A DNA stretch of 64,000 nt, from the NCBI GenBank assembly GCA_038046605.1, contig JBBSVW010000073.1:196-64195 (forward strand), given 5' to 3'. The stretch is from Candidatus Micrarchaeota archaeon (GTDB lineage Archaea > Micrarchaeota > Micrarchaeia > Norongarragalinales > SBBD01). Both the position numbers and the translations under genes were made by a program. Of this stretch, positions 3,505 through 31,795 are shown piece by piece (the stretch's first letter is position 1; each line of letters begins with the position of its first letter). Below the pieces are notes generated by a model. That model was not told the origin of the DNA. It made no database searches and worked only from the letters and a program-made list of their open reading frames with translations.

Positions 3505-4170
3505 TTAAGAAATTTTGGCTTCCTTATCTCCTTTCATATCAAGAAATAGGTCGTTGTTTACGAGAGCCATTAATGCCCCATTCAAGTATAAGTCTTCAGA
3601 ATATTTACTTGAAAAAAGTATTTCTAAAAACTGCTTTTTTGCAAATTTGTGCGAGGCGTCAACTGCTTCGGAAGCCGTACTTCCATTTATTAACGATTTT
3701 GGGATTTGATTCGAAGCCTCCAAAACCGGCCTTGCCATTGGATCCTTTAACGGCCTTGCGATGTATTCGTACTGAAATGGAATTATGAACTCTTTTTTGT
3801 AACCGATGAAAGCTCGCCCCCCTTTCATAATAGATGCTTCGCCTAACTCCTCTAAGCAATTACAGGCTCTTATGAACGTCACCGTATTTGCTAAAGCTTC
3901 TGCCGAAGAGAGTGTAATCACTTCTTCAAGATTATGCCCACAATAGCTATCCTTGCTGCCATGGCCATTAAGAAATACGAAATCGGGTTTTACTGAATTG
4001 AGTCTTCCAATAATATTTTTTTGGGTTACTTCATCTCCCCTAACATCGGTTACATTATAGCCGGAACTTTTCGCTTCTGTAATAATTTCCTCGCTCCAAA
4101 AGAATAAGTAGTTTGTGCCATTGTCATAATTAGGGCGGGCAATCAGTATCTTTTTCATGAATTTAATCAC
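3505..4170 (-). CDS. Compact caspase/hemoglobinase-fold-like putative cysteine peptidase (His-Gly ... Ala-Cys dyad)
   Basis: FVFLNGHGS followed ~35 aa later by FIRACNC. N-terminal KKILIARPNY beta-strand start. 221 aa. Confidence 0.45.
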   Translation of the reverse strand: MIKFMKKILIARPNYDNGTNYLFFWSEEIITEAKSSGYNVTDVRGDEVTQKNIIGRLNSVKPDFVFLNGHGSKDSYCGHNLEEVITLSSAEALANTVTFIRACNCLEELGEASIMKGGRAFIGYKKEFIIPFQYEYIARPLKDPMARPVLEASNQIPKSLINGSTASEAVDASHKFAKKQFLEILFSSKYSEDLYLNGALMALVNNDLFLDMKGDKEAKIS

Positions 4171-4387
4171 TTAGAGTAGCTGAAAGGCGGGGCATCTGTT
4201 TAATGAACTCCAGTTGCATATCCACTATTGCCTTGCCCGTATCGGTTTCCTTCCGTACTTCGCTGATTAATTCCTCCTTTGTATACGTTCCATGACTTCC
4301 AATGGAAAAGCCCACATTAGGGGGCATTGTCTGAAGCCGGGCCACAACTAATTTCTTTATTATTTCAGCATATGCCATCTTTACCAC
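4163..4387 (-). CDS. Small hypothetical protein (74 aa), operon partner of the His-Cys protein
   Basis: 8-nt overlap with the downstream gene. No known motif. Confidence 0.4.
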   Translation of the reverse strand: MVKMAYAEIIKKLVVARLQTMPPNVGFSIGSHGTYTKEELISEVRKETDTGKAIVDMQLEFIKQMPRLSATLSD

Positions 4388-4392
4388 CTGTT

Positions 4393-4626
4393 CTACAATA
4401 AACTTGCCTCTTTTAAGAATTTAAGGATTTTGTTCCCCTTTTCGGTATTATTGCTTATTTCGAGATATGCAGAAAACCAAGAATAGGTTTGCTCATCCAC
4501 AACCGCTATAATTTCCCCCCTCAGGGGCCCAGGTACTGATGCAAATAGCTTCAGGAAGCTGGGTCTGAGAGTTTCAAGATCCTCGCCCATATTATCATCC
4601 ATTCGGGATACTAGAACTCGCAGCAA
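4393..4626 (-). CDS. Small hypothetical protein (77 aa), first gene of three-gene cassette
   Basis: 5-nt spacing to the next gene on the same strand. Acidic N-terminus. Confidence 0.4.
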   Translation of the reverse strand: MLRVLVSRMDDNMGEDLETLRPSFLKLFASVPGPLRGEIIAVVDEQTYSWFSAYLEISNNTEKGNKILKFLKEASLL

Positions 4627-4693
4627 ATATATAATCCAGTAGGCTTTGCTGAGTCTTTAGGCTGCGGAAGGATGTACCGAAATCTCTCTTTTC

Positions 4694-4715
4694 TTCCAAA
4701 CGGATTTACAAACCG
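4694..4715. repeat. Degenerate copy of tRNA-Glu T-arm/3' end (tccaaacggatttacaaaccg)
   Basis: 18/21 identity to 4732-4752 of the adjacent tRNA-Glu. Confidence 0.45.
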
Positions 4716-4728
4716 AAAAGAAAAAAAA

Positions 4729-4886
4729 TGCTCCAAACGGGATTTGAACCCGTGTCGAAGGCTTTTTCCACCAAAAGAAATCATCCTTAATTTCTTTCTT
4801 TTGGACCCCTAGTTTTCTTTCTTTCCAAAAGAAAGAAAAATGGGGTTGAGAAGCCCTTATCCTTGACCGAGCTAGACGATTGGAGC
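4729..4886 (-). tRNA. tRNA-Glu (anticodon CUC) with ~83-nt intron at canonical 37/38 position (approx 4764-4846)
   Basis: Hand-folded. Acceptor GCUCCAA/UUGGAGC, U8, A14, D-stem GUCU/GGAU, anticodon stem AGGGC/GCCUU, loop UUCUCAA, T-arm ACGGG-UUCAAAU-CCCGU, A73. CCA not encoded. Confidence 0.75.
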
Positions 4887-4962
4887 AGCTGATCGGGACT
4901 ATATTCTGGTCCAGCACATTATTAATTATTGGTCGGCAGCTTGAAAATCAGTTTCTTTTGCC

Positions 4963-5247
4963 CTACAAGAGCGCCTGCCCATCCTTCGTGCAGAATTTCG
5001 TGTCCAAAGGATATTCCGTTTTGCATTTCTGGCAAACAAGGAATAGTTTGGTGCCATCATCCGGGCAGAATTTCATGCCAAGGTCAGCAATTTTCTTCTT
5101 GCATTTTGGGCATTGCCTAGGGCCTGGAGCCTTTACGCCTTGTATTCCCTTATTCACCGCCCCGGAAACGCCCGAAGAAATTCCGCCCGCCGCCTTATTG
5201 CTCAAATCCGTTGTGACTCTTCCAACAATACTATCAAATATTCCCAT
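4963..5247 (-). CDS. Double zinc-ribbon domain protein
   Basis: Two CPxC...C..DG motifs (CPKC...FCPDDG; CQKC...FCTKDG). Confidence 0.45.
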   Translation of the reverse strand: MGIFDSIVGRVTTDLSNKAAGGISSGVSGAVNKGIQGVKAPGPRQCPKCKKKIADLGMKFCPDDGTKLFLVCQKCKTEYPLDTKFCTKDGQALL

Positions 5248-5331
5248 ATGACCACCAAAAAGCTACGAATTATGGATTATTAATTATTGGGTTTCTTCTA
5301 CTTTGGGGGCCTATTTCTAAAGTGTTGTGCC

Positions 5332-5898
5332 ATGGCAAAAATCTACACCAAAACAGGCGACTCCGGCGAAACCTCGTTCTATGGGGGGAAACGCATCCCA
5401 AAGCACGATCTGCGGCTGGAGGTATACGGTTCACTTGACGAGCTTAATTCCATTCTGGGGATGGCAAGGTCGCTATATGATCTGGGGGCAAAAACCGGCA
5501 TGCTGAATGATAGCGCTGAAATTGAGCCGCTCCTGAAAAGCCTCCAGGATGACCTATTTGTGGTGGGTTCGGATCTAGCAGCTCCGGAACACAACAAAAT
5601 CGCGCGGGTTTCCCCCAAAATGGTTGAAAGGCTCGAAAAGGAAATAGATGCGCTTGATTCCAAGCTGCCGCCACTTGCCAATTTCATCCTCCCAAGCGGC
5701 ACAATTGCGGCATCAACAATCCATCATGCAAGGACAGTTTGCCGTAGGGCGGAAAGAAAACTCTCAGATCTCAACTCCAAGGAAAAGATAAATCCGGAGC
5801 TATTGAAATATATCAATAGGCTCTCAGATCTACTATTTGTAATGGCAAGATCCGAGAACCATGCCGCTGGCTTTGGGGATGAGGTTTGGAAACCCTAA
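5332..5898 (+). CDS. PduO-type ATP:cob(I)alamin (corrinoid) adenosyltransferase
   Basis: IYTKTGDSGETS...R.EVYGSLDELNS N-terminal signature of the MMAB/PduO family. Start moved to internal ATG at 5332. Confidence 0.75.
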   Translation: MAKIYTKTGDSGETSFYGGKRIPKHDLRLEVYGSLDELNSILGMARSLYDLGAKTGMLNDSAEIEPLLKSLQDDLFVVGSDLAAPEHNKIARVSPKMVERLEKEIDALDSKLPPLANFILPSGTIAASTIHHARTVCRRAERKLSDLNSKEKINPELLKYINRLSDLLFVMARSENHAAGFGDEVWKP

Positions 5899-5915
5899 CC
5901 TAATAAAAAAAAATA

Positions 5916-6094
5916 TGCAGGGGAAGGGATTTTCATGCCTTGCCGCTAAATTCGGCGGAGCCGCAAAAGTGTTTTCTTTGGCGGCGCCATCGCCTTTCTT
6001 TTTCAAAAGAAAGGCAAGGCGATTTGAACCCTCGAACCCCTAAGGGATCAGACCCTGAATCTGACGCATTTGACCAGTCTTTGCTACCCCTGCA
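5916..6094 (-). tRNA. tRNA-Leu (anticodon CAG) with ~94-nt non-canonical intron in the T-loop/T-stem junction (approx 5929-6022)
   Basis: Acceptor GCAGGGG pairs perfectly with CCCCUGC at 5917-5923; A73 at 5916. D-arm GCAA...UGC, anticodon arm UCAGA-UUCAGGG-UCUGA, long variable arm. T-stem GAGGG + UUCAAAU, then intron, then CCCUU. Confidence 0.6.
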
Positions 6095-6180
6095 TAAGGG
6101 TTAGGATTAGAGACGGTGAAGAATAAAAATAATGGGATTTGGATGAAATCCGATTCTGAAAACAAATGGGAATGCGCATA

Positions 6181-6630
6181 TCAACGGTTGATTGGCGGGG
6201 TTGTAAAATTTCTTTCCCCAAAATCGCCCATGCAAATCAAATCCCTATTGCTAACTATGCATTTTCCCTTCAATTCCCCGCGTGGGTTTTGCACTGCGCA
6301 GGCATCCCCATCTGATTTTCCCTTGCAGGCAGTCAACGCTTCTTGCATCCTTTGCTTTTGCATCTGCGCTCTTTGTTCATCCGTCATGTTCCCAAATGTT
6401 CCGTTCCCAAAGCCGCCAATTCCGCTTCCGTTCCCCCCAAAGCTCCCATTGCGAGGCCCTCCAAATGTCCCATTCCTAAATCCGGAGCCGTTGCGATAGC
6501 CATCTCCTGGCCTTCCCTGATATGGCGCGCCATTCCCTCCGTCCTGATTGCCATTTTCGGTGCATCCCATGAGAAGGAATGACGATGCGATTATTGCCAT
6601 TGTCAAAATCCGAAATGTTATTTTTTTCAC
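6181..6630 (-). CDS. Gly/Asn-rich lipoprotein
   Basis: Signal peptide with LLMGC lipobox. Repetitive GNGS/GFGNGT low-complexity region. Cys-containing C-terminal domain. Confidence 0.5.
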   Translation of the reverse strand: MKKITFRILTMAIIASSFLLMGCTENGNQDGGNGAPYQGRPGDGYRNGSGFRNGTFGGPRNGSFGGNGSGIGGFGNGTFGNMTDEQRAQMQKQRMQEALTACKGKSDGDACAVQNPRGELKGKCIVSNRDLICMGDFGERNFTTPPINR

Positions 6631-6695
6631 TCTTAATCACCCAATAAATTCTCCTAAATAAACGATTTTTTCAAATTTAGATTCAATTGGGGTGG

Positions 6696-7967
6696 TCATT
6701 CGTAGCGCAATGACTCTACGGGCTGCAATTTCGCAGCATTCCTTGCCGGCAATGCGCCGGATACTATGCCAACGACTCCCGAAAATGCCAGCGCCATAAG
6801 CGCCAGATCAAACGTGATCAGGCTGGGCACTGAAAATGCCGCCAAAATTTGTGAAACAATTAGGCTGAGGATGATTCCAAGCATTCCGCCCGCAAGCCCT
6901 ATGATTGCAGCTTCCGTCAGGAACATTGCCGTCACCTCCGAATCCTTCATCCCAAGCGATTTCAAAATCCCAATTTCCCTAGTTCGCTCAAGCACGCTCA
7001 TGAACATGGTGTTTGCAACCCCAATTGCGCCGACCAGAAGGGAAATTGCGGCAATCCCCCCAAGGAATAGTGCCAGCATGTTTGTCACATCGGAAACCGT
7101 GGACTGCAGGAACGAAGCCGTTGTGATTGTGAAATCCGCCTTGTCGGCAGTGAGGCGATGCAACTCCAAAAGCTTAGTTTCTATTTTGGCTGCCACCTCA
7201 TCGGGGGATTTTCCAGGCGCTACCTTTATGAAAATCTGGTTTGCATTTTCCGATTCGTTAAGGATGGCTTTGGCAACCTCGATTGGAACATAAATAACAT
7301 TATCCGATGTAGTAAGGGAACCCGATGTTTGGTTGAGAAGGCCAACAACCCTAAGGGAATAATCGCCAATTTTAATTTGCCTATTTAGGAGCTCCTCCCC
7401 CCCGAACGTTGCGGAATGGACACGATAGCCAAGCACGACTGAAAAGCGGTCATTTGGGTTTAGCAGTTTCCCATCTAATAATGTGGTCGTGCTAATTTGG
7501 TTGAAAGCAGAAGGGTCAATCCCAACAATTTGAACCGTGGAGTTCCTGCCCTTGAATGATGCGCGCTTGCTTGCCTGTAACCTTGCATCAACGGCAATTA
7601 CCCCCTCTATCAATTTCAAATCCTGCGCTTCTGAAAATTTTAATTCATTAGTTCCCTGGTTGATCCTTCCCCCAAAAGTTCCCCCACCACCCGGAGGGCC
7701 GCCTCCACCAAAGCCTCCGCCGCCCCCGCCAATGAATACTCCCCCTCCCTCCCTAATCGAGCGGCTTGCTCCGGGGGTGATTTGAATCACATCATTCCCA
7801 AGCTGGTTAAGCCGAGAGCTCACCTGCTGATTTACTCCATTTGCAAGTGAGATCAGGATAATGATTGAAGCAACCGCTATCACTATCCCAAGGACCGTAA
7901 GCATTGCCCTAAGCTTCCTTCCCCTCATATTGTTAACTGACAAAAACGCAACATCCTTGTACTTCAT
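6696..7967 (-). CDS. ABC transporter permease, MacB/FtsX family, with poly-Gly insert in extracytoplasmic domain
   Basis: N-terminal TM, large extracytoplasmic domain, C-terminal FtsX-like 3-TM region. 4-nt overlap with the upstream COG1361 gene. Confidence 0.8.
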   Translation of the reverse strand: MKYKDVAFLSVNNMRGRKLRAMLTVLGIVIAVASIIILISLANGVNQQVSSRLNQLGNDVIQITPGASRSIREGGGVFIGGGGGGFGGGGPPGGGGTFGGRINQGTNELKFSEAQDLKLIEGVIAVDARLQASKRASFKGRNSTVQIVGIDPSAFNQISTTTLLDGKLLNPNDRFSVVLGYRVHSATFGGEELLNRQIKIGDYSLRVVGLLNQTSGSLTTSDNVIYVPIEVAKAILNESENANQIFIKVAPGKSPDEVAAKIETKLLELHRLTADKADFTITTASFLQSTVSDVTNMLALFLGGIAAISLLVGAIGVANTMFMSVLERTREIGILKSLGMKDSEVTAMFLTEAAIIGLAGGMLGIILSLIVSQILAAFSVPSLITFDLALMALAFSGVVGIVSGALPARNAAKLQPVESLRYE

Positions 7968-9244
7968 TTATGGCGCCTCCTATACCATTTGTAGCCAAAG
8001 AACGCCGCAACAAGCAGAATCAAAATTCCTCCAATCACAATTGGCTGAATTCCCAATATTGTGAATTGCTGCGAGTTCCTTCCAAATCTTTGGTTGGTTC
8101 CGGTTATCCCATCTGCGGTATTGCCCGTTCCGATGCCGCCAAAACCTGCAACTGCCCCAATCTCGAATTCCTTTTGCTGTATATGTTCGGCATTCAATGA
8201 ATCCTTGTAGGACACTTTGATGTAAACTTTCCCTGCTCCTTGTGTGCCGCTCATTGGCAACAAGCTAAGGGACATGCTAACCGAATCGTCCAAATTTAGC
8301 GTGCCAAAGAACTTTTCGGATGCGCCGCTAAACCTGAAATCATCCGATTCCGCGGAAATAAAAACGCCCCGAACCGGTGTATCGCCCACATTTGCAACGC
8401 CTACAACCAGGAGCTGGCCTGTGGCGCTCGTTGTAGTGGAGCTTGTATCCGCGCTCACAAGAAGGTCCGTATTGGATTCAACCTTGATGCCAAAAGTTTG
8501 CGTGATTGTCGGCTGGGCGACCTTGTCGACCTTATAGGTGATGAGAAGTGTTATGGGGTAATAGCCCGGGTCTGCGGATGGGCTTATTCCCGCATCAAAC
8601 TCAATAGTCTTTTCCGAATCAAGGGCTATTCCCTCAATATATTTCCGGTCAGAGCCTATTGGCAAAAGGACATTTCCCGGGGTGTATTGCATCTGCACGA
8701 TCACATCCTGCGCATCCCTTGCGCCCACGTTCCTTATTGTGATTGGAAGTTTTACGGTATCCCCGGAAAACACCAACAAATTCCCCCCCACATTGGCAAT
8801 GAGCGCATTTGATAATTGGGGCTCATAAATTGTCAGCTGTATCTGCGCCACCTGCGCCTGCCCCCCTGATGCACCTTGCGCATAAACATAAATATCATAG
8901 TTTCCAGGCTTTGTGGCATTTTGAACCTTGAAATTGACAGAAATTCCTTTCTTTGCACCTACTGCCAAATCATCCAGGAAATAATTGCTTGTCTGTGAGA
9001 GGAATGGAACTAGCACTTTTGCTTCCACATTCCCAATAGCCTCGCCTCCCACGTTTTGAAGATTGAATTGCAGCCTAACCTCATCGCCTGGGTAAATCCT
9101 GTCGGGAGTTTGGATAAGATCGCTAATGGTGATGCCCGATTCGTAGGTTCCGGCAATTCTTGTGACATTGAATGTTGCCGCATTAGCATTTATTGCAAAT
9201 AACAGCACGATCAATCCCAGCATTCCAATTATTCCTCTTACCAT
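7964..9244 (-). CDS. COG1361-type S-layer-domain/CARDB-like exported protein with C-terminal TM anchor
   Basis: Signal peptide, beta-rich repeats, C-terminal hydrophobic segment plus RRRHK. Co-operonic with the ABC ATPase and permease. Confidence 0.6.
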   Translation of the reverse strand: MVRGIIGMLGLIVLLFAINANAATFNVTRIAGTYESGITISDLIQTPDRIYPGDEVRLQFNLQNVGGEAIGNVEAKVLVPFLSQTSNYFLDDLAVGAKKGISVNFKVQNATKPGNYDIYVYAQGASGGQAQVAQIQLTIYEPQLSNALIANVGGNLLVFSGDTVKLPITIRNVGARDAQDVIVQMQYTPGNVLLPIGSDRKYIEGIALDSEKTIEFDAGISPSADPGYYPITLLITYKVDKVAQPTITQTFGIKVESNTDLLVSADTSSTTTSATGQLLVVGVANVGDTPVRGVFISAESDDFRFSGASEKFFGTLNLDDSVSMSLSLLPMSGTQGAGKVYIKVSYKDSLNAEHIQQKEFEIGAVAGFGGIGTGNTADGITGTNQRFGRNSQQFTILGIQPIVIGGILILLVAAFFGYKWYRRRHK

Positions 9245-28869: not shown

Positions 28870-31194
28870 GTGCAGGGGGAGGCACTCCCCCGTCGCGGAT
28901 TTCCAAAGCAATTTATATTCAGGGGGTATAACGCTTTAGGTAAGGCTATGGTTGGCGAATTCGTTGTCAAAAGCGAGGGCGGTAGGCGCCAGCTCATCAT
29001 CAATTACAAGGGCTCCCCGTATGGGGCAGACATTGCGCAGTATGCGCCTTGCATGAAGGATGTTGTCGAAAAACTAAGGGAAGTCGATGCGGATGAGGTC
29101 GTGCTCTCCGAATACTATGAAAAGATCTACAATGCCGAACAAGTCGGGCTTCTTAGGGGAATAAGCGATCTTATCCAAAAGCTCGAAGCGCAGGCAGTAT
29201 GGTCGCCAAGCAACCTTGGAAATACGAATGATTCCAAGCTACTGGCGCCAAGGCACGATGCCATAATGCAAGCCCTTGATTTGCTTCCGGGAGACCCCTT
29301 CCGCGCCTACCTGGCAATTTTACAGGAAATAAAAACCCAGATGGCGCGCGCGCAAGCCTCGAATGAAGCGGCGCTTGATGACCTCAAGGTCTATCTCAAA
29401 ACGCTTGGATTCATGCGAAGCGAGCTGGAAAAAACGCAGCTAATCTCCTCAATGAAAAAATACCTGTTGCAGCTTGCAACAATCCCAACTGACCGCAACA
29501 TCTACCGCACGCTTTTCGAAGCGGCAATAAAGCCATCCTTCATAGGCTCGCGCATCTTCTTTACCGGCTCTGAAAACCTGCAGCTAATCGACCAGTATGA
29601 TGTGATTGGCACGAAGGTTTACATCTACAAGCACCCGGAAAAAGTCGAGCTTCTCTACTATATCAACCCTCCCGAATACACCCTTTCGCCCGAAAAATAT
29701 TTCCTCCTGGAAAAGACAAAGGAGGTCGTTTCAACCCACCGCCCGGCGTCCGTATCCTTCCTTGACATGCAGCAGGCGCGCAAGTATTTCCGCAAGATTT
29801 ACATGGCAACAATCAACGATTTGGCAACCCAAAACAACATAAAAATATCCGCAGAGGAAAAAGATGAGCTTTCGACCATTGTCAGCAGGTACACAATTGG
29901 CTACGGAATCATGGAAATCCTCCTATCCGACAGGCAGCTCACCGACGTGTATGTTGATTCCCCGCTCGGCGAAAAGCCCATCTACCTCGTCCATAGCAAA
30001 TACGGCCAGTGCCAAACAAATGTGATATTTTCCCAGGAGGAGGCAAAAAGCCTGATTTCAAGGTTCCGCGCACTATCTGGGCGGCCCTTTGATGAAGCCC
30101 ACCCCATCCTGGATTTTGATCTGCCCGATTTGCAAACCCGCATTGCAGCAATTGGCAGGCCCCTTGCGGTTGACGGGACGGCCTTTGCCTTGCGTTTGCA
30201 CAAGGAAACACCCTGGACGCTCACGCAATTTTTGGATTTCCGCATGTTCAATCCCCTAACCGCCGGGCTTTTGTCATTCATGGTGGATGCTCAGGCATCA
30301 ATGCTGATTGTTGGAAGCAGGGGCGCGGGCAAGACGTCGATCCTTCAAAGTTTAATGCAGGAAATTCCTCAAAACCTAAGGATAATTGTGCAGGAAGACA
30401 CTTTAGAATTGCCTGTCCATTCCCTCAAGCGCCTTGGCTTTTCCATCCAGCGGCTCAAAACAAGGGCGCCCCTTGGGATGCAAAGCGAATCCGAGGTGTC
30501 CGCTGAGGATGCGCTTAGGACTGCCCTTCGTTTGGGCGATTCGGTATTAATTGTAGGGGAGGTGAGGTCCGTTGAAGCTAGGGCCCTATTCGAAGCCATG
30601 AGGGTAGGGGCGGTTGGAAACGTTGTAATGGGGACCATCCATGGCGAGAGCGCGTATTCCATTTGGGATCGAATTGTTAATGATTTGGGGGTTCCAACTA
30701 CCTCATTCAAGGCAACTGATTTTGCAATTGTTGCAACGCAGATCAGGTTCAAAGGATCGCTCAAGCGCCAAAGGAGGCTTATTGAAATCACGGAAGTCAA
30801 AAAGCATTGGACGCAGGATCCGGATAAGGAGGATGGCTTCCTTAACTGGATGATGTTTGATGCTGCAAAGGATGATTTGGAGTTTTTTGAGGAAAAAATC
30901 AAGGAATCCGAATGGCTAGATAAGCTGCAAAAAACCCGTGGGCTAAAGTTGGAGCAGATTTGGGATGAAATCCATGCGCGGGCGGATGCAAAGCAATACC
31001 TTGTGGATCTCAAGCGCAAATACTCCATTCCTAAGCTTTTAGAAGCTGAAAACACATTGCCGGCGCACAGCCGCTATATGCTGCTATCAGAAGCGCAGCG
31101 CGAGGAGAATGGCAGTGTCGATCACAAGCAGCTGCTTAAGGATTACCGGGCGTGGGTCGATGATTACCTTGCCAAACCATTACTGAAGAAATAA
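28870..31194 (+). CDS. Secretion-superfamily ATPase (GspE/FlaI/VirB11/TadA-type) with ~330-aa N-terminal extension
   Basis: Walker A VGSRGAGKTS, Asp box SVLIVGEVR, His box MGTIHGES. 774 aa. Confidence 0.8.
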   Translation: MQGEALPRRGFPKQFIFRGYNALGKAMVGEFVVKSEGGRRQLIINYKGSPYGADIAQYAPCMKDVVEKLREVDADEVVLSEYYEKIYNAEQVGLLRGISDLIQKLEAQAVWSPSNLGNTNDSKLLAPRHDAIMQALDLLPGDPFRAYLAILQEIKTQMARAQASNEAALDDLKVYLKTLGFMRSELEKTQLISSMKKYLLQLATIPTDRNIYRTLFEAAIKPSFIGSRIFFTGSENLQLIDQYDVIGTKVYIYKHPEKVELLYYINPPEYTLSPEKYFLLEKTKEVVSTHRPASVSFLDMQQARKYFRKIYMATINDLATQNNIKISAEEKDELSTIVSRYTIGYGIMEILLSDRQLTDVYVDSPLGEKPIYLVHSKYGQCQTNVIFSQEEAKSLISRFRALSGRPFDEAHPILDFDLPDLQTRIAAIGRPLAVDGTAFALRLHKETPWTLTQFLDFRMFNPLTAGLLSFMVDAQASMLIVGSRGAGKTSILQSLMQEIPQNLRIIVQEDTLELPVHSLKRLGFSIQRLKTRAPLGMQSESEVSAEDALRTALRLGDSVLIVGEVRSVEARALFEAMRVGAVGNVVMGTIHGESAYSIWDRIVNDLGVPTTSFKATDFAIVATQIRFKGSLKRQRRLIEITEVKKHWTQDPDKEDGFLNWMMFDAAKDDLEFFEEKIKESEWLDKLQKTRGLKLEQIWDEIHARADAKQYLVDLKRKYSIPKLLEAENTLPAHSRYMLLSEAQREENGSVDHKQLLKDYRAWVDDYLAKPLLKK

Positions 31195-31667
31195 TGGGGT
31201 AGGGGCGACACGCGTAGGGGAAATGTGTTCCCCTAGAGGTGTCGATTACAAGGAGTGGGTTGACAACTATTTAGCGAAACCATTGCTCAAAAAATGAGGG
31301 GGTAGAGGCAACACGAGTAGGGGGATACTTCCCCCTGTAGGTGTCGATTACAAGCAATGGGTTGACGACTACTTGGCAAAACCATTATTAAAGAAATAAT
31401 GGGGTAGAGGCGATGTTGGAGTTGAAAGACAACTACGACATAAGTAGAGGCAAGCTCTACGCTACACGAGTAGGGGAAATGTGTTCCCCTATGGGTGTCG
31501 ATTACAAGCAATGGGTGGACGGCTATTTGGCGAAGCCGCTGCTGAAGAAATAAATTCAATTAAATTGATACGCAGAAGTAACTAGGGGGGAGGCGGCGAC
31601 ACGTGGTGGGGGCTTAGCCCCCATTGGGTGTCGATGATTATTTGGCGAAGCCGCTTCTGAAGAAATA
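31195..31667 (+). repeat. Array of four degenerate repeat units, each a GC-rich nested hairpin plus an in-frame copy of the ATPase 3' terminal codons ending ...YLAKPLLKK-stop
   Basis: Units at 31195-31297, 31298-31399, 31400-31553 (carries a 57-nt insertion) and 31585-31667. Hairpin stems are conserved while loops vary. The coding tails differ mainly at synonymous positions. Confidence 0.8.
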
Positions 31668-31795
31668 GGACTTGCAATTAAGCTCACGTGTTTTACTATT
31701 TGCACCTTAACCCTTTTTATTCCTCATTTCAAAAAAATTATAGATTTTGCAACAGTTTAAAAGCCTCTTTTCCTTCAATTTTGCGAGGGGTATAG

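Follow-up and report, generated by a model that had tools for sequence, protein, structure and literature searches.

Is a tRNA gene that breaks off in its T-loop and resumes 93 nucleotides (nt) further on a working gene, and if so, how would its transcript be made whole? This question is raised by a locus in contig JBBSVW010000073.1 of a Candidatus Micrarchaeota archaeon, of which a stretch of 64 kb (the window) was analysed. Reading the minus strand from 6093 to 6023 gives GCAGGGG-UA-GCAAAGACUGGUCAAAUGC-G-UCAGA-UUCAGGG-UCUGA-UCCCUUAGGGGUUC-GAGGG-UUCAAA, after which a 93-nt insert (6022-5930) precedes U-CCCUU-CCCCUGC-A (5929-5916). This short 3′ piece completes 12 consecutive stem pairs, five in the T-stem and seven in the acceptor stem. 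Our analysis indicates that 5916-6093 is very probably a functional Micrarchaeota (DPANN) tRNA-Leu(CAG) gene, in which a bulge-helix-bulge (BHB) intron lies between T-loop positions 59 and 60.

Excision of 6022-5930 in silico yielded an 85-nt tRNA-Leu(CAG) with a normal cloverleaf and a long variable arm, as called by ARAGORN. The same program found no tRNA in the unspliced locus, with or without anticodon-loop introns allowed, nor anywhere else in the 64-kb window, and Rfam gave only a partial, sub-threshold tRNA match here (17.3 bits, 6013-6093). A preliminary description, made from the letters alone, had proposed a tRNA-Leu(CAG) interrupted in its T-loop; both points are borne out, since the gene is called as soon as the insert is removed, and exon 1 runs through position 59 with exon 2 starting at U60. 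That description had also remarked that non-canonical intron positions are known in some Crenarchaeota and DPANN-like archaea; the host is indeed a DPANN archaeon, with the NCBI source name Candidatus Micrarchaeota archaeon. The splice sites were located independently by a SPLITS-like scan for BHB motifs, which covered both strands of the window and position pairs 8-260 nt apart, required four base pairs in the central helix, four in the outer helix and no fewer than three of four in the inner helix, and passed each candidate, spliced in silico, to ARAGORN. Run blind, the scan returned one new tRNA from 2,849 candidates, with splice sites at 6023 and 5930; the remaining ARAGORN calls were artefacts within the already known intron of a second tRNA gene, tRNA-Glu(CUC).

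At the junctions, the outer helix of the motif is the T-stem GAGGG/CCCUU (five of five pairs, one of them G.U) and the central helix is UUCA/UGAA (four of four pairs). Both bulges are 3 nt long and lie on opposite strands, A58 A59|U on the 5′ side and AA|U60 on the 3′ side. An 8-bp inner helix, GCCUUGCC/GGCAAGGC, follows beyond a mismatch of C6021 with A5936 (seven of eight pairs in our tabulation, where the C.A counts as the first). These junctions are best read as an hBHBh′ motif that is near-strict and places the cuts at 59/60. The A-run and the shared U make cuts anywhere from 56/57 to 60/61 yield an identical mature sequence, so that the position of about 60-61 given earlier is a sequence-equivalent cut, but BHB geometry places it at 59/60. 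The intron itself was correctly recognized, although it measures 93 rather than about 94 nt, and of the gene extent first given as 5916-6094, the 3′ end at 5916 stands whereas the 5′ end is at 6093. Testing the junctions for a BHB, a check suggested at the outset, recovered one in the T-arm context, with the UUCA/UGAA helix, two AA|U bulges and the inner helix after the C.A, and the strong hairpin reported in the insert, GCCUUUCUUUUGAAAAAGAAAGGC, is present at 5992-6015. At −72.4 kcal/mol (z = −3.7), the minimum free energy (MFE) fold of the precursor contains the acceptor and T-stems, the helix that closes the intron and, within the latter, three hairpins.

Orthologous loci, designated here by L numbers, were gathered from the contigs of homologs of a neighbouring adenosyltransferase and by exact-pattern scans with a 39-nt exon motif, in species-representative genomes and in metagenome contigs; the metagenome scan contributed a single intronless allele and a duplicate of L010. 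In the orthologous loci, synteny with the cob(I)alamin adenosyltransferase gene is preserved. Exon 2 is identical in every ortholog that has the GCAGGGG acceptor strand, and exon 1 is 93.6-97.8% identical to its counterparts in L006, L011, L007 and L008. The insert after UUCAAA is far more variable: 93 nt in the window, 139 nt in L006, 134 nt in L002, L010 and L017 (which are equal), 77 nt in L012 and 19 nt in L011. It is missing from the tRNA-Leu(CAG) genes of L007 (= L013), L008 (= L014), L009 (Anstonellales), L015 and L016. To judge from the identities of the adenosyltransferase to that of the window, which are 82% for L002, 75% for L006, 65% for L007, 58% for L008 and 57% for L011, the presence of the intron is patchy and not restricted to one close clade. 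Among named relatives, the closest in which this gene is likewise interrupted is a Candidatus Norongarragalinales metagenome-assembled genome (MAG; L010), from an order described as sister to other Micrarchaeia (PMC8561730).

The exons of the intron-bearing alleles match those of the window at 83-84 of 85 positions, whereas the introns are only 11-61% identical. The intronless genes of L007 and L008 agree with the spliced window gene at 81-82 of 85 positions and are ordinary Rfam tRNAs, scoring 54.3 and 52.6 bits against a threshold of 29. In the species-representative genomes with interrupted alleles (L010, L011 and L012), the 39-nt exon pattern has one match each. The contrast between conserved exons and divergent introns indicates that the exons are under purifying selection and that the intron is a rapidly evolving spacer, and thus that the gene is not a decaying pseudogene. 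Conservation extends upstream, where the block 6094-6129 together with exon 1 is 87-90% conserved with L002/L010 and L012, and T-runs like the one downstream of the window gene also lie 3′ of the orthologs in L006, L008, L011 and L012.

The splice motif of the leucine gene varies among these loci. The L006 allele has one C.A mismatch within the central helix, and in that of L010 the motif is reduced to its 3′ half (hBH/BHL type). In the latter intron, a segment of about 48 nt (L002 4241-4288, equal to L010 1491-1538) is the reverse complement of window intron positions 5973-6020; the L010/L002 intron looks as though it had been inverted between the two closing-helix arms, with the 5′ end replaced by an unrelated hairpin and half of the BHB left. 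A separate observation concerns the intronless genes of L007 and L008, each of which is preceded by a pyrimidine/purine hairpin (GUUUUUCUUUUUAAAAAAGAAAAAGU, about 5617-5646 of L007; GCUUUUCUUUCUGGAAGAGAAAGAAAAGG, about 5660-5694 of L008) that ends 3-4 nt before the mature 5′ end of tRNA-Leu and is of the same style as the hairpins within the introns.

The second tRNA gene of the window, tRNA-Glu(CUC) (4729-4886, minus strand, 40.2 bits in Rfam), is also interrupted by a long intron, so that both tRNA genes of the 64 kb have one. Its exon 1 (4886-4847) is followed by an 83-nt intron (4846-4764) at the canonical 37/38 site, with a UUCU/GGAA central helix, bulges CA|A and AA|A, and two pyrimidine/purine hairpins. 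Hairpins of this CUUUCUUUU/AAAAGAAAG kind occur in the window only in the two tRNA introns, and the idea that they are a genome-wide repeat was discarded on this ground. The tRNA-Glu(CUC) genes of related loci have no intron, one or two, at different sites (Table 1), and those at 59/60 are relatives of the leucine intron: blastn aligned the T-loop plus intron of the window with the L002 glutamate gene (80% over 70 nt, E = 3e-6), and the L012 leucine intron with the 59/60 glutamate introns of L002 (81% over 59 nt, E = 2e-7) and L011 (82% over 44 nt, E = 3e-5). Altogether, the window leucine intron is homologous to the leucine introns of L006, L010 and L012 and to the glutamate introns of L002 and L011. 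The leucine and glutamate exons have no sequence relation except in the T-arm, and homologous introns in genes so unrelated require at least one transfer of the intron family between genes. By the same comparisons, the family has also been lost, shortened, expanded or rearranged in different lineages.

An alignment of five long copies revealed a common plan: GCCUUGCC/GGCAAGGC as the closing helix, two hairpins, one of them CUUUCUUUU/AAAGAAAG and the other GC-rich, and an A-rich AAAGAAAA linker. The leucine intron of L006 and the glutamate intron of L011 have an additional two-hairpin insert of about 50 nt in the loop of the CUUUCUUUU/AAAGAAAG hairpin. Pairing at the splice sites is maintained through sequence change. 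The 59/60 copy in L002 tRNA-Glu is a strict hBHBh′ motif; that of L011 tRNA-Glu has the same C.A feature as the window, with a T-loop of UUCG and an intron partner of CGAA in place of UUCA/UGAA, a two-sided compensatory change in the central helix; and the inner helix of L012 shows a compensatory C-G to A-U replacement. The sample behind this covariation is small, at seven intron copies. The closing helix and hairpins retain their primary sequence even between genomes whose neighbouring adenosyltransferase is only 57% identical, which may mean that the family spread recently or that the intron core has a function. Some T-loop introns of relatives contain T5-T7 runs that resemble archaeal terminators (for example CCTTTCTTTTTTTATAAAAAG), namely the L002 glutamate 59/60 intron (about 1220-1240) and that of L011 tRNA-Glu; T-runs in the window intron reach T4 at most.

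Could the interrupted gene be something other than a spliced tRNA gene? A chance juxtaposition or assembly artefact, in which the truncated 5′ part of a tRNA happened to be completed by unrelated sequence, would account for the failure of standard finders, but has next to no probability: there are 12 consecutive complementary stem positions plus a BHB, the window scan gave this single tRNA, and the same architecture recurs in independent assemblies from ENA, Logan, NCBI and JGI, which refutes it. The stem pairs, the scan outcome and the recurrence in related genomes together lead us to regard the gene as real. It could still be a pseudogene, disrupted by an element resembling a miniature inverted-repeat transposable element, with the 8-bp closing helix as terminal inverted repeats and AAAT at the borders as a target-site duplication. 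The borders do show AAAT as a 4-nt direct repeat and GCCTTGCC/GGCAAGGC as 8-bp inverted repeats, and the insert family is found in two different genes with patchy presence. However, the near-identity of the exons holds over five lineages in which the inserts diverge to 11-61% and even the flanking adenosyltransferase retains only 57-82%, and both the A/T box upstream and the terminator-like T-run persist. Moreover, the 4-mers UUCA and UGAA at the borders are complementary rather than directly repeated, and in L011 tRNA-Glu they change together with the T-loop to UUCG/CGAA, as a BHB requires and a target duplication does not; the target-duplication reading was rejected on this basis. The 3′ border of L011 tRNA-Glu also has two extra T residues, unlike a clean duplication. 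No copies of the element were seen outside tRNA genes in the window and the loci, and no second copy of the gene was matched in the representative genomes. We therefore consider a transposon-inactivated pseudogene very improbable.

A different possibility accepts that spliced tRNA would be made, and takes the intron to be an actively mobile structured RNA whose core serves its spread between T-loops or has a role once excised, for instance as a stable RNA circle. On this account, the window intron would be one copy of a structured family, now or recently mobile, that targets position 59/60 of GGGUUCRAAUCCC T-arms in Norongarragalinales-like Micrarchaeota, and its parts (closing helix GCCUUGCC/GGCAAGGC, CUUUCUUUU/AAAAGAAAG hairpin, GC-rich hairpin and A-rich linker) would be kept for spread or for a role of the excised, probably circular, RNA. 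The sequence of the closing helix and hairpin is indeed kept across genomes with a 57%-identical adenosyltransferase and across leucine and glutamate hosts, two-sided changes affect 8 of the 24 consensus pairs in the alignment, and the hairpins are restricted to the two tRNA introns of the window. Against this, five long copies offer little statistical power, and recent transfer could explain the similarity by itself. The leucine intron has shrunk to 19 nt in L011 and is rearranged, with its inverted segment, in L010, so that the interior is dispensable for the host gene; and the intron sequence has no Rfam match and no C/D-box motifs. We regard such a mobile or functional RNA as a tentative proposal with a minor share of the probability, and a functional tRNA-Leu(CAG) gene with a BHB intron at 59/60 as the reading best suited to the data.

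A splicing pathway is proposed in which transcription would run from the upstream A/T-rich box to the T9 run. In the precursor, as its sequence predicts, the T-stem GAGGG/CCCUU would stack on the 4-bp helix between U54-A57 and UGAA, with the closing helix GCCUUGCC/GGCAAGGC prolonging the stack and the splice sites exposed in the two 3-nt AA|U bulges on opposite strands. By analogy with the established archaeal pathway, the splicing endonuclease EndA would cleave both bulges and RtcB would join the exons, and probably also circularize the intron. The predicted junction is ...UUCAAA|UCCCUU..., with ...GGGUUCAAA|UCCCUUCCCCUGCA-CCA spanning it in the mature tRNA, where CCA would be added afterwards since none is encoded at the 3′ end of exon 2. 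Strict α4 and α′2 endonucleases are reported not to process non-canonical introns, which are handled only by (αβ)2, ε2 or specific-loop enzymes (PMC5829648), and a broad-substrate EndA like the ε2 enzyme of ARMAN-2 (Candidatus Micrarchaeum acidiphilum) would be expected.

Several observations count against this picture. The first pair of the inner helix is a C.A mismatch, which makes the motif slightly relaxed, and the MFE fold of the window precursor leaves the 4-bp central helix open; in the MFE fold of the L010 ortholog this helix does form. In L011 and L012, the leucine introns accommodate a 3-nt 3′ bulge only if read in the 58/59 register, where the outer helix is weak. No EndA gene was found in the window or the loci by tblastn with the Methanocaldococcus jannaschii EndA as query (validated against PDB 1a79). 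A search with the ARMAN-2 catalytic unit returned 47 mostly short database proteins; homologs of 165-218 amino acids exist in metagenomes, but none is tied to this MAG, and the three that were looked up came from other samples. Among the metagenome loci with close homologs of that catalytic unit, L043 (2379-3555) and L045 (2446-3615) have an open reading frame (ORF) of 95-104 amino acids with an EndA N-terminal domain 270-310 nt upstream of the ORF for the catalytic domain; the gap could mean that these are two subunits, that the gene call is broken or that a gene is interrupted.

Table 1. Features of the interrupted tRNA-Leu(CAG) gene in the window, and introns in the tRNA-Glu(CUC) genes of related loci.
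Locus	Feature	Positions	Strand	Remarks
Window	Exon 1 of tRNA-Leu(CAG)	6023..6093	minus	Acceptor 5′ strand GCAGGGG, D-arm, anticodon arm (CAG), long variable arm, GAGGG, U54-A59
Window	BHB intron, 93 nt, position 59/60	5930..6022	minus	Closing helix and three internal hairpins
Window	Exon 2	5916..5929	minus	U60, T-stem 3′ strand CCCUU, acceptor 3′ strand CCCCUGC, discriminator A73
Window	Central BHB helix, exon strand U54 U55 C56 A57	6025..6028	minus	Pairs with 5932-5935
Window	Central BHB helix, intron strand UGAA	5932..5935	minus	Followed by 3′ bulge AA|U (5931, 5930 | 5929)
Window	Inner helix h′ (intron closing helix), 5′ strand GCCUUGCC	6013..6020	minus	Preceded by U6022 (third base of the 5′ bulge) and C6021
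Window	Inner helix h′, 3′ strand GGCAAGGC	5937..5944	minus	
Window	Pyrimidine/purine hairpin GCCUUUCUUUU-GAAAA-AGAAAGGC in intron	5992..6015	minus	Common feature of the intron family
Window	TATA-like A/T-rich box TTATTTTTATTC	6121..6132	minus	Putative archaeal promoter; precedes the mature 5′ end by about 28-39 nt
Window	T9 run	5905..5913	minus	Begins 3 nt past the discriminator; putative archaeal transcription terminator
L007	tRNA-Glu(CUC), no intron			
L006	tRNA-Glu(CUC), intron at 37/38			
L008	tRNA-Glu(CUC), one intron in D-loop	4769-4926		About 81 nt
L011	tRNA-Glu(CUC), one intron at 59/60	5652-5780	minus	129 nt
L002	tRNA-Glu(CUC), two introns, at 37/38 and 59/60	1166-1257	minus	59/60 intron of 92 nt

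Next to the leucine gene, on the plus strand, the adenosyltransferase used above to find orthologs (5332-5898) is a PduO-type cob(I)alamin adenosyltransferase; an identical protein is encoded on contig CAYHRO010000001.1 of the Candidatus Micrarchaeota MAG GCA_964359135.1. Elsewhere in the window, unrelated to the tRNA genes, the region 31141-31670 (plus strand) contains the last ~60 nt of a 774-amino-acid ORF (28870-31194, ending ...KDYRAWVDDYLAKPLLKK*) with a downstream hairpin GTAGGGGAAATGTGTTCCCCTA, followed by about four further tandem copies of this unit with a period of roughly 102-154 nt. Several of the copies read ...VDYK(E/Q)WVD(N/G)YLAKPLLKK* and the last is partial; the repeats resemble tandem 'spare' 3′ gene ends.

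An intron of this kind is already known: BHB introns at 59/60 in Micrarchaeota tRNAs were published in 2011. In ARMAN-2, 56% of the tRNA genes are disrupted (Fujishima et al. 2011, PMC3239211), among them tRNA-Cys(GCA) with a 13-nt intron at 59/60 and tRNA-Pro(GGG) with introns at 53/54 and 59/60, and the ε2 EndA of that organism cut the 59/60 intron of tRNA-Cys in vitro (PMC3239211). The position is also a listed non-canonical intron site (PMC4090602). The case described here shares with ARMAN-2 the phylum, the T-loop site and a BHB or relaxed BHB built on the T-stem, but differs in its host, which is tRNA-Leu(CAG), in its length of 93 nt rather than the 13 nt of tRNA-Cys(GCA), in a near-strict hBHBh′ motif instead of hBH/BHL, and in a lineage whose nearest named relative is Candidatus Norongarragalinales. 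The novelty therefore lies in the tRNA that is interrupted, in an intron length of 93 nt that rises to 139 nt in relatives, in the lineage and in the intron family shared between leucine and glutamate genes. For that last feature, the closest precedent is found in Thermoproteales, where, as summarized in PMC4090602 from Fujishima et al. 2010, introns of closely similar sequence in separate isoacceptor genes, some at canonical and some at non-canonical sites, were taken as signs of movement after speciation. Homologous introns in different tRNA genes, here at 59/60 of tRNA-Leu(CAG) and tRNA-Glu(CUC), are common to the Thermoproteales introns so summarized and to ours, although the former belong to TACK rather than DPANN archaea, and the introns found here are so far limited to two host genes and one site and are much longer, with multiple hairpins.

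Canonical 37/38 introns such as that of the window tRNA-Glu are built on the same principle, with an exon helix, a 4-bp helix between the loop and the 3′ end of the intron, and two 3-nt bulges, and are presumably processed by the same enzymes; their outer helix is the anticodon stem, whereas in tRNA-Leu it is the T-stem. Group I and group II introns also interrupt tRNA genes, in the bacterial case of group I introns in the anticodon loop, but are several hundred nucleotides long. At 93 nt, the insert is far too short for either ribozyme, and no Rfam match to one was obtained in 4000-8000 even at E ≤ 10, which eliminates both classes. Introns that harbour a C/D-box sRNA, as in Haloferax tRNA-Trp, contain C (RUGAUGA) and D (CUGA) boxes; neither box is present in 5930-6022 and Rfam gave no snoRNA match in the intron, which dismisses this type. 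A split or permuted tRNA gene is likewise excluded, since the two halves are colinear and 93 nt apart, with one upstream A/T box and one terminator.

Annotation tools fare poorly on such genes, and the silence of ARAGORN at the window locus is a limit of the tool rather than evidence against the gene. A supposedly intronless tRNA-Leu that ARAGORN placed at 6044-6129 of L006 proved spurious, having borrowed intron bases; the real 3′ end is at 6254-6267. The program also mislabels interrupted tRNA-Glu genes, as tRNA-Phe in L006 and as tRNA-Pro in L008. Routine tRNA calls in these genomes are therefore unreliable. More permissive searching was of little help: a relaxed BHB scan of the loci (three of four central pairs, inner helix not required) produced 164,132 candidates and 1,527 ARAGORN calls, which was too noisy for use, and a scan of viral contigs for the exon-intron junctions gave 25 matches, all in coding-looking DNA without tRNA context and attributable to chance. 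In practical terms, Rfam recovers one of the two tRNAs of the window and ARAGORN none in 64 kb, and the MAG would be scored as lacking tRNA-Leu(CAG), which would lower completeness estimates and distort inferences on codon reading. Relatives are affected in the same way, as Rfam at its gathering threshold missed the T-loop-interrupted leucine and glutamate genes.

The known picture of archaeal tRNA splicing is unchanged by these findings, which add to the ARMAN-2 lineage of acid mines another branch of the Micrarchaeota with T-loop introns at 59/60. They add unusually long (77-139 nt) homologous introns in two tRNA genes, whose presence or absence differs among close relatives, and thereby offer, in DPANN archaea, a counterpart to the intron transposition that has been inferred for Thermoproteales. 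The lineage is predicted to possess a splicing endonuclease of broad specificity. If the mobile-family reading were true, the present, absent, shrunken, expanded and inverted states found in close relatives would make these genes a natural system for the gain and loss of BHB introns.

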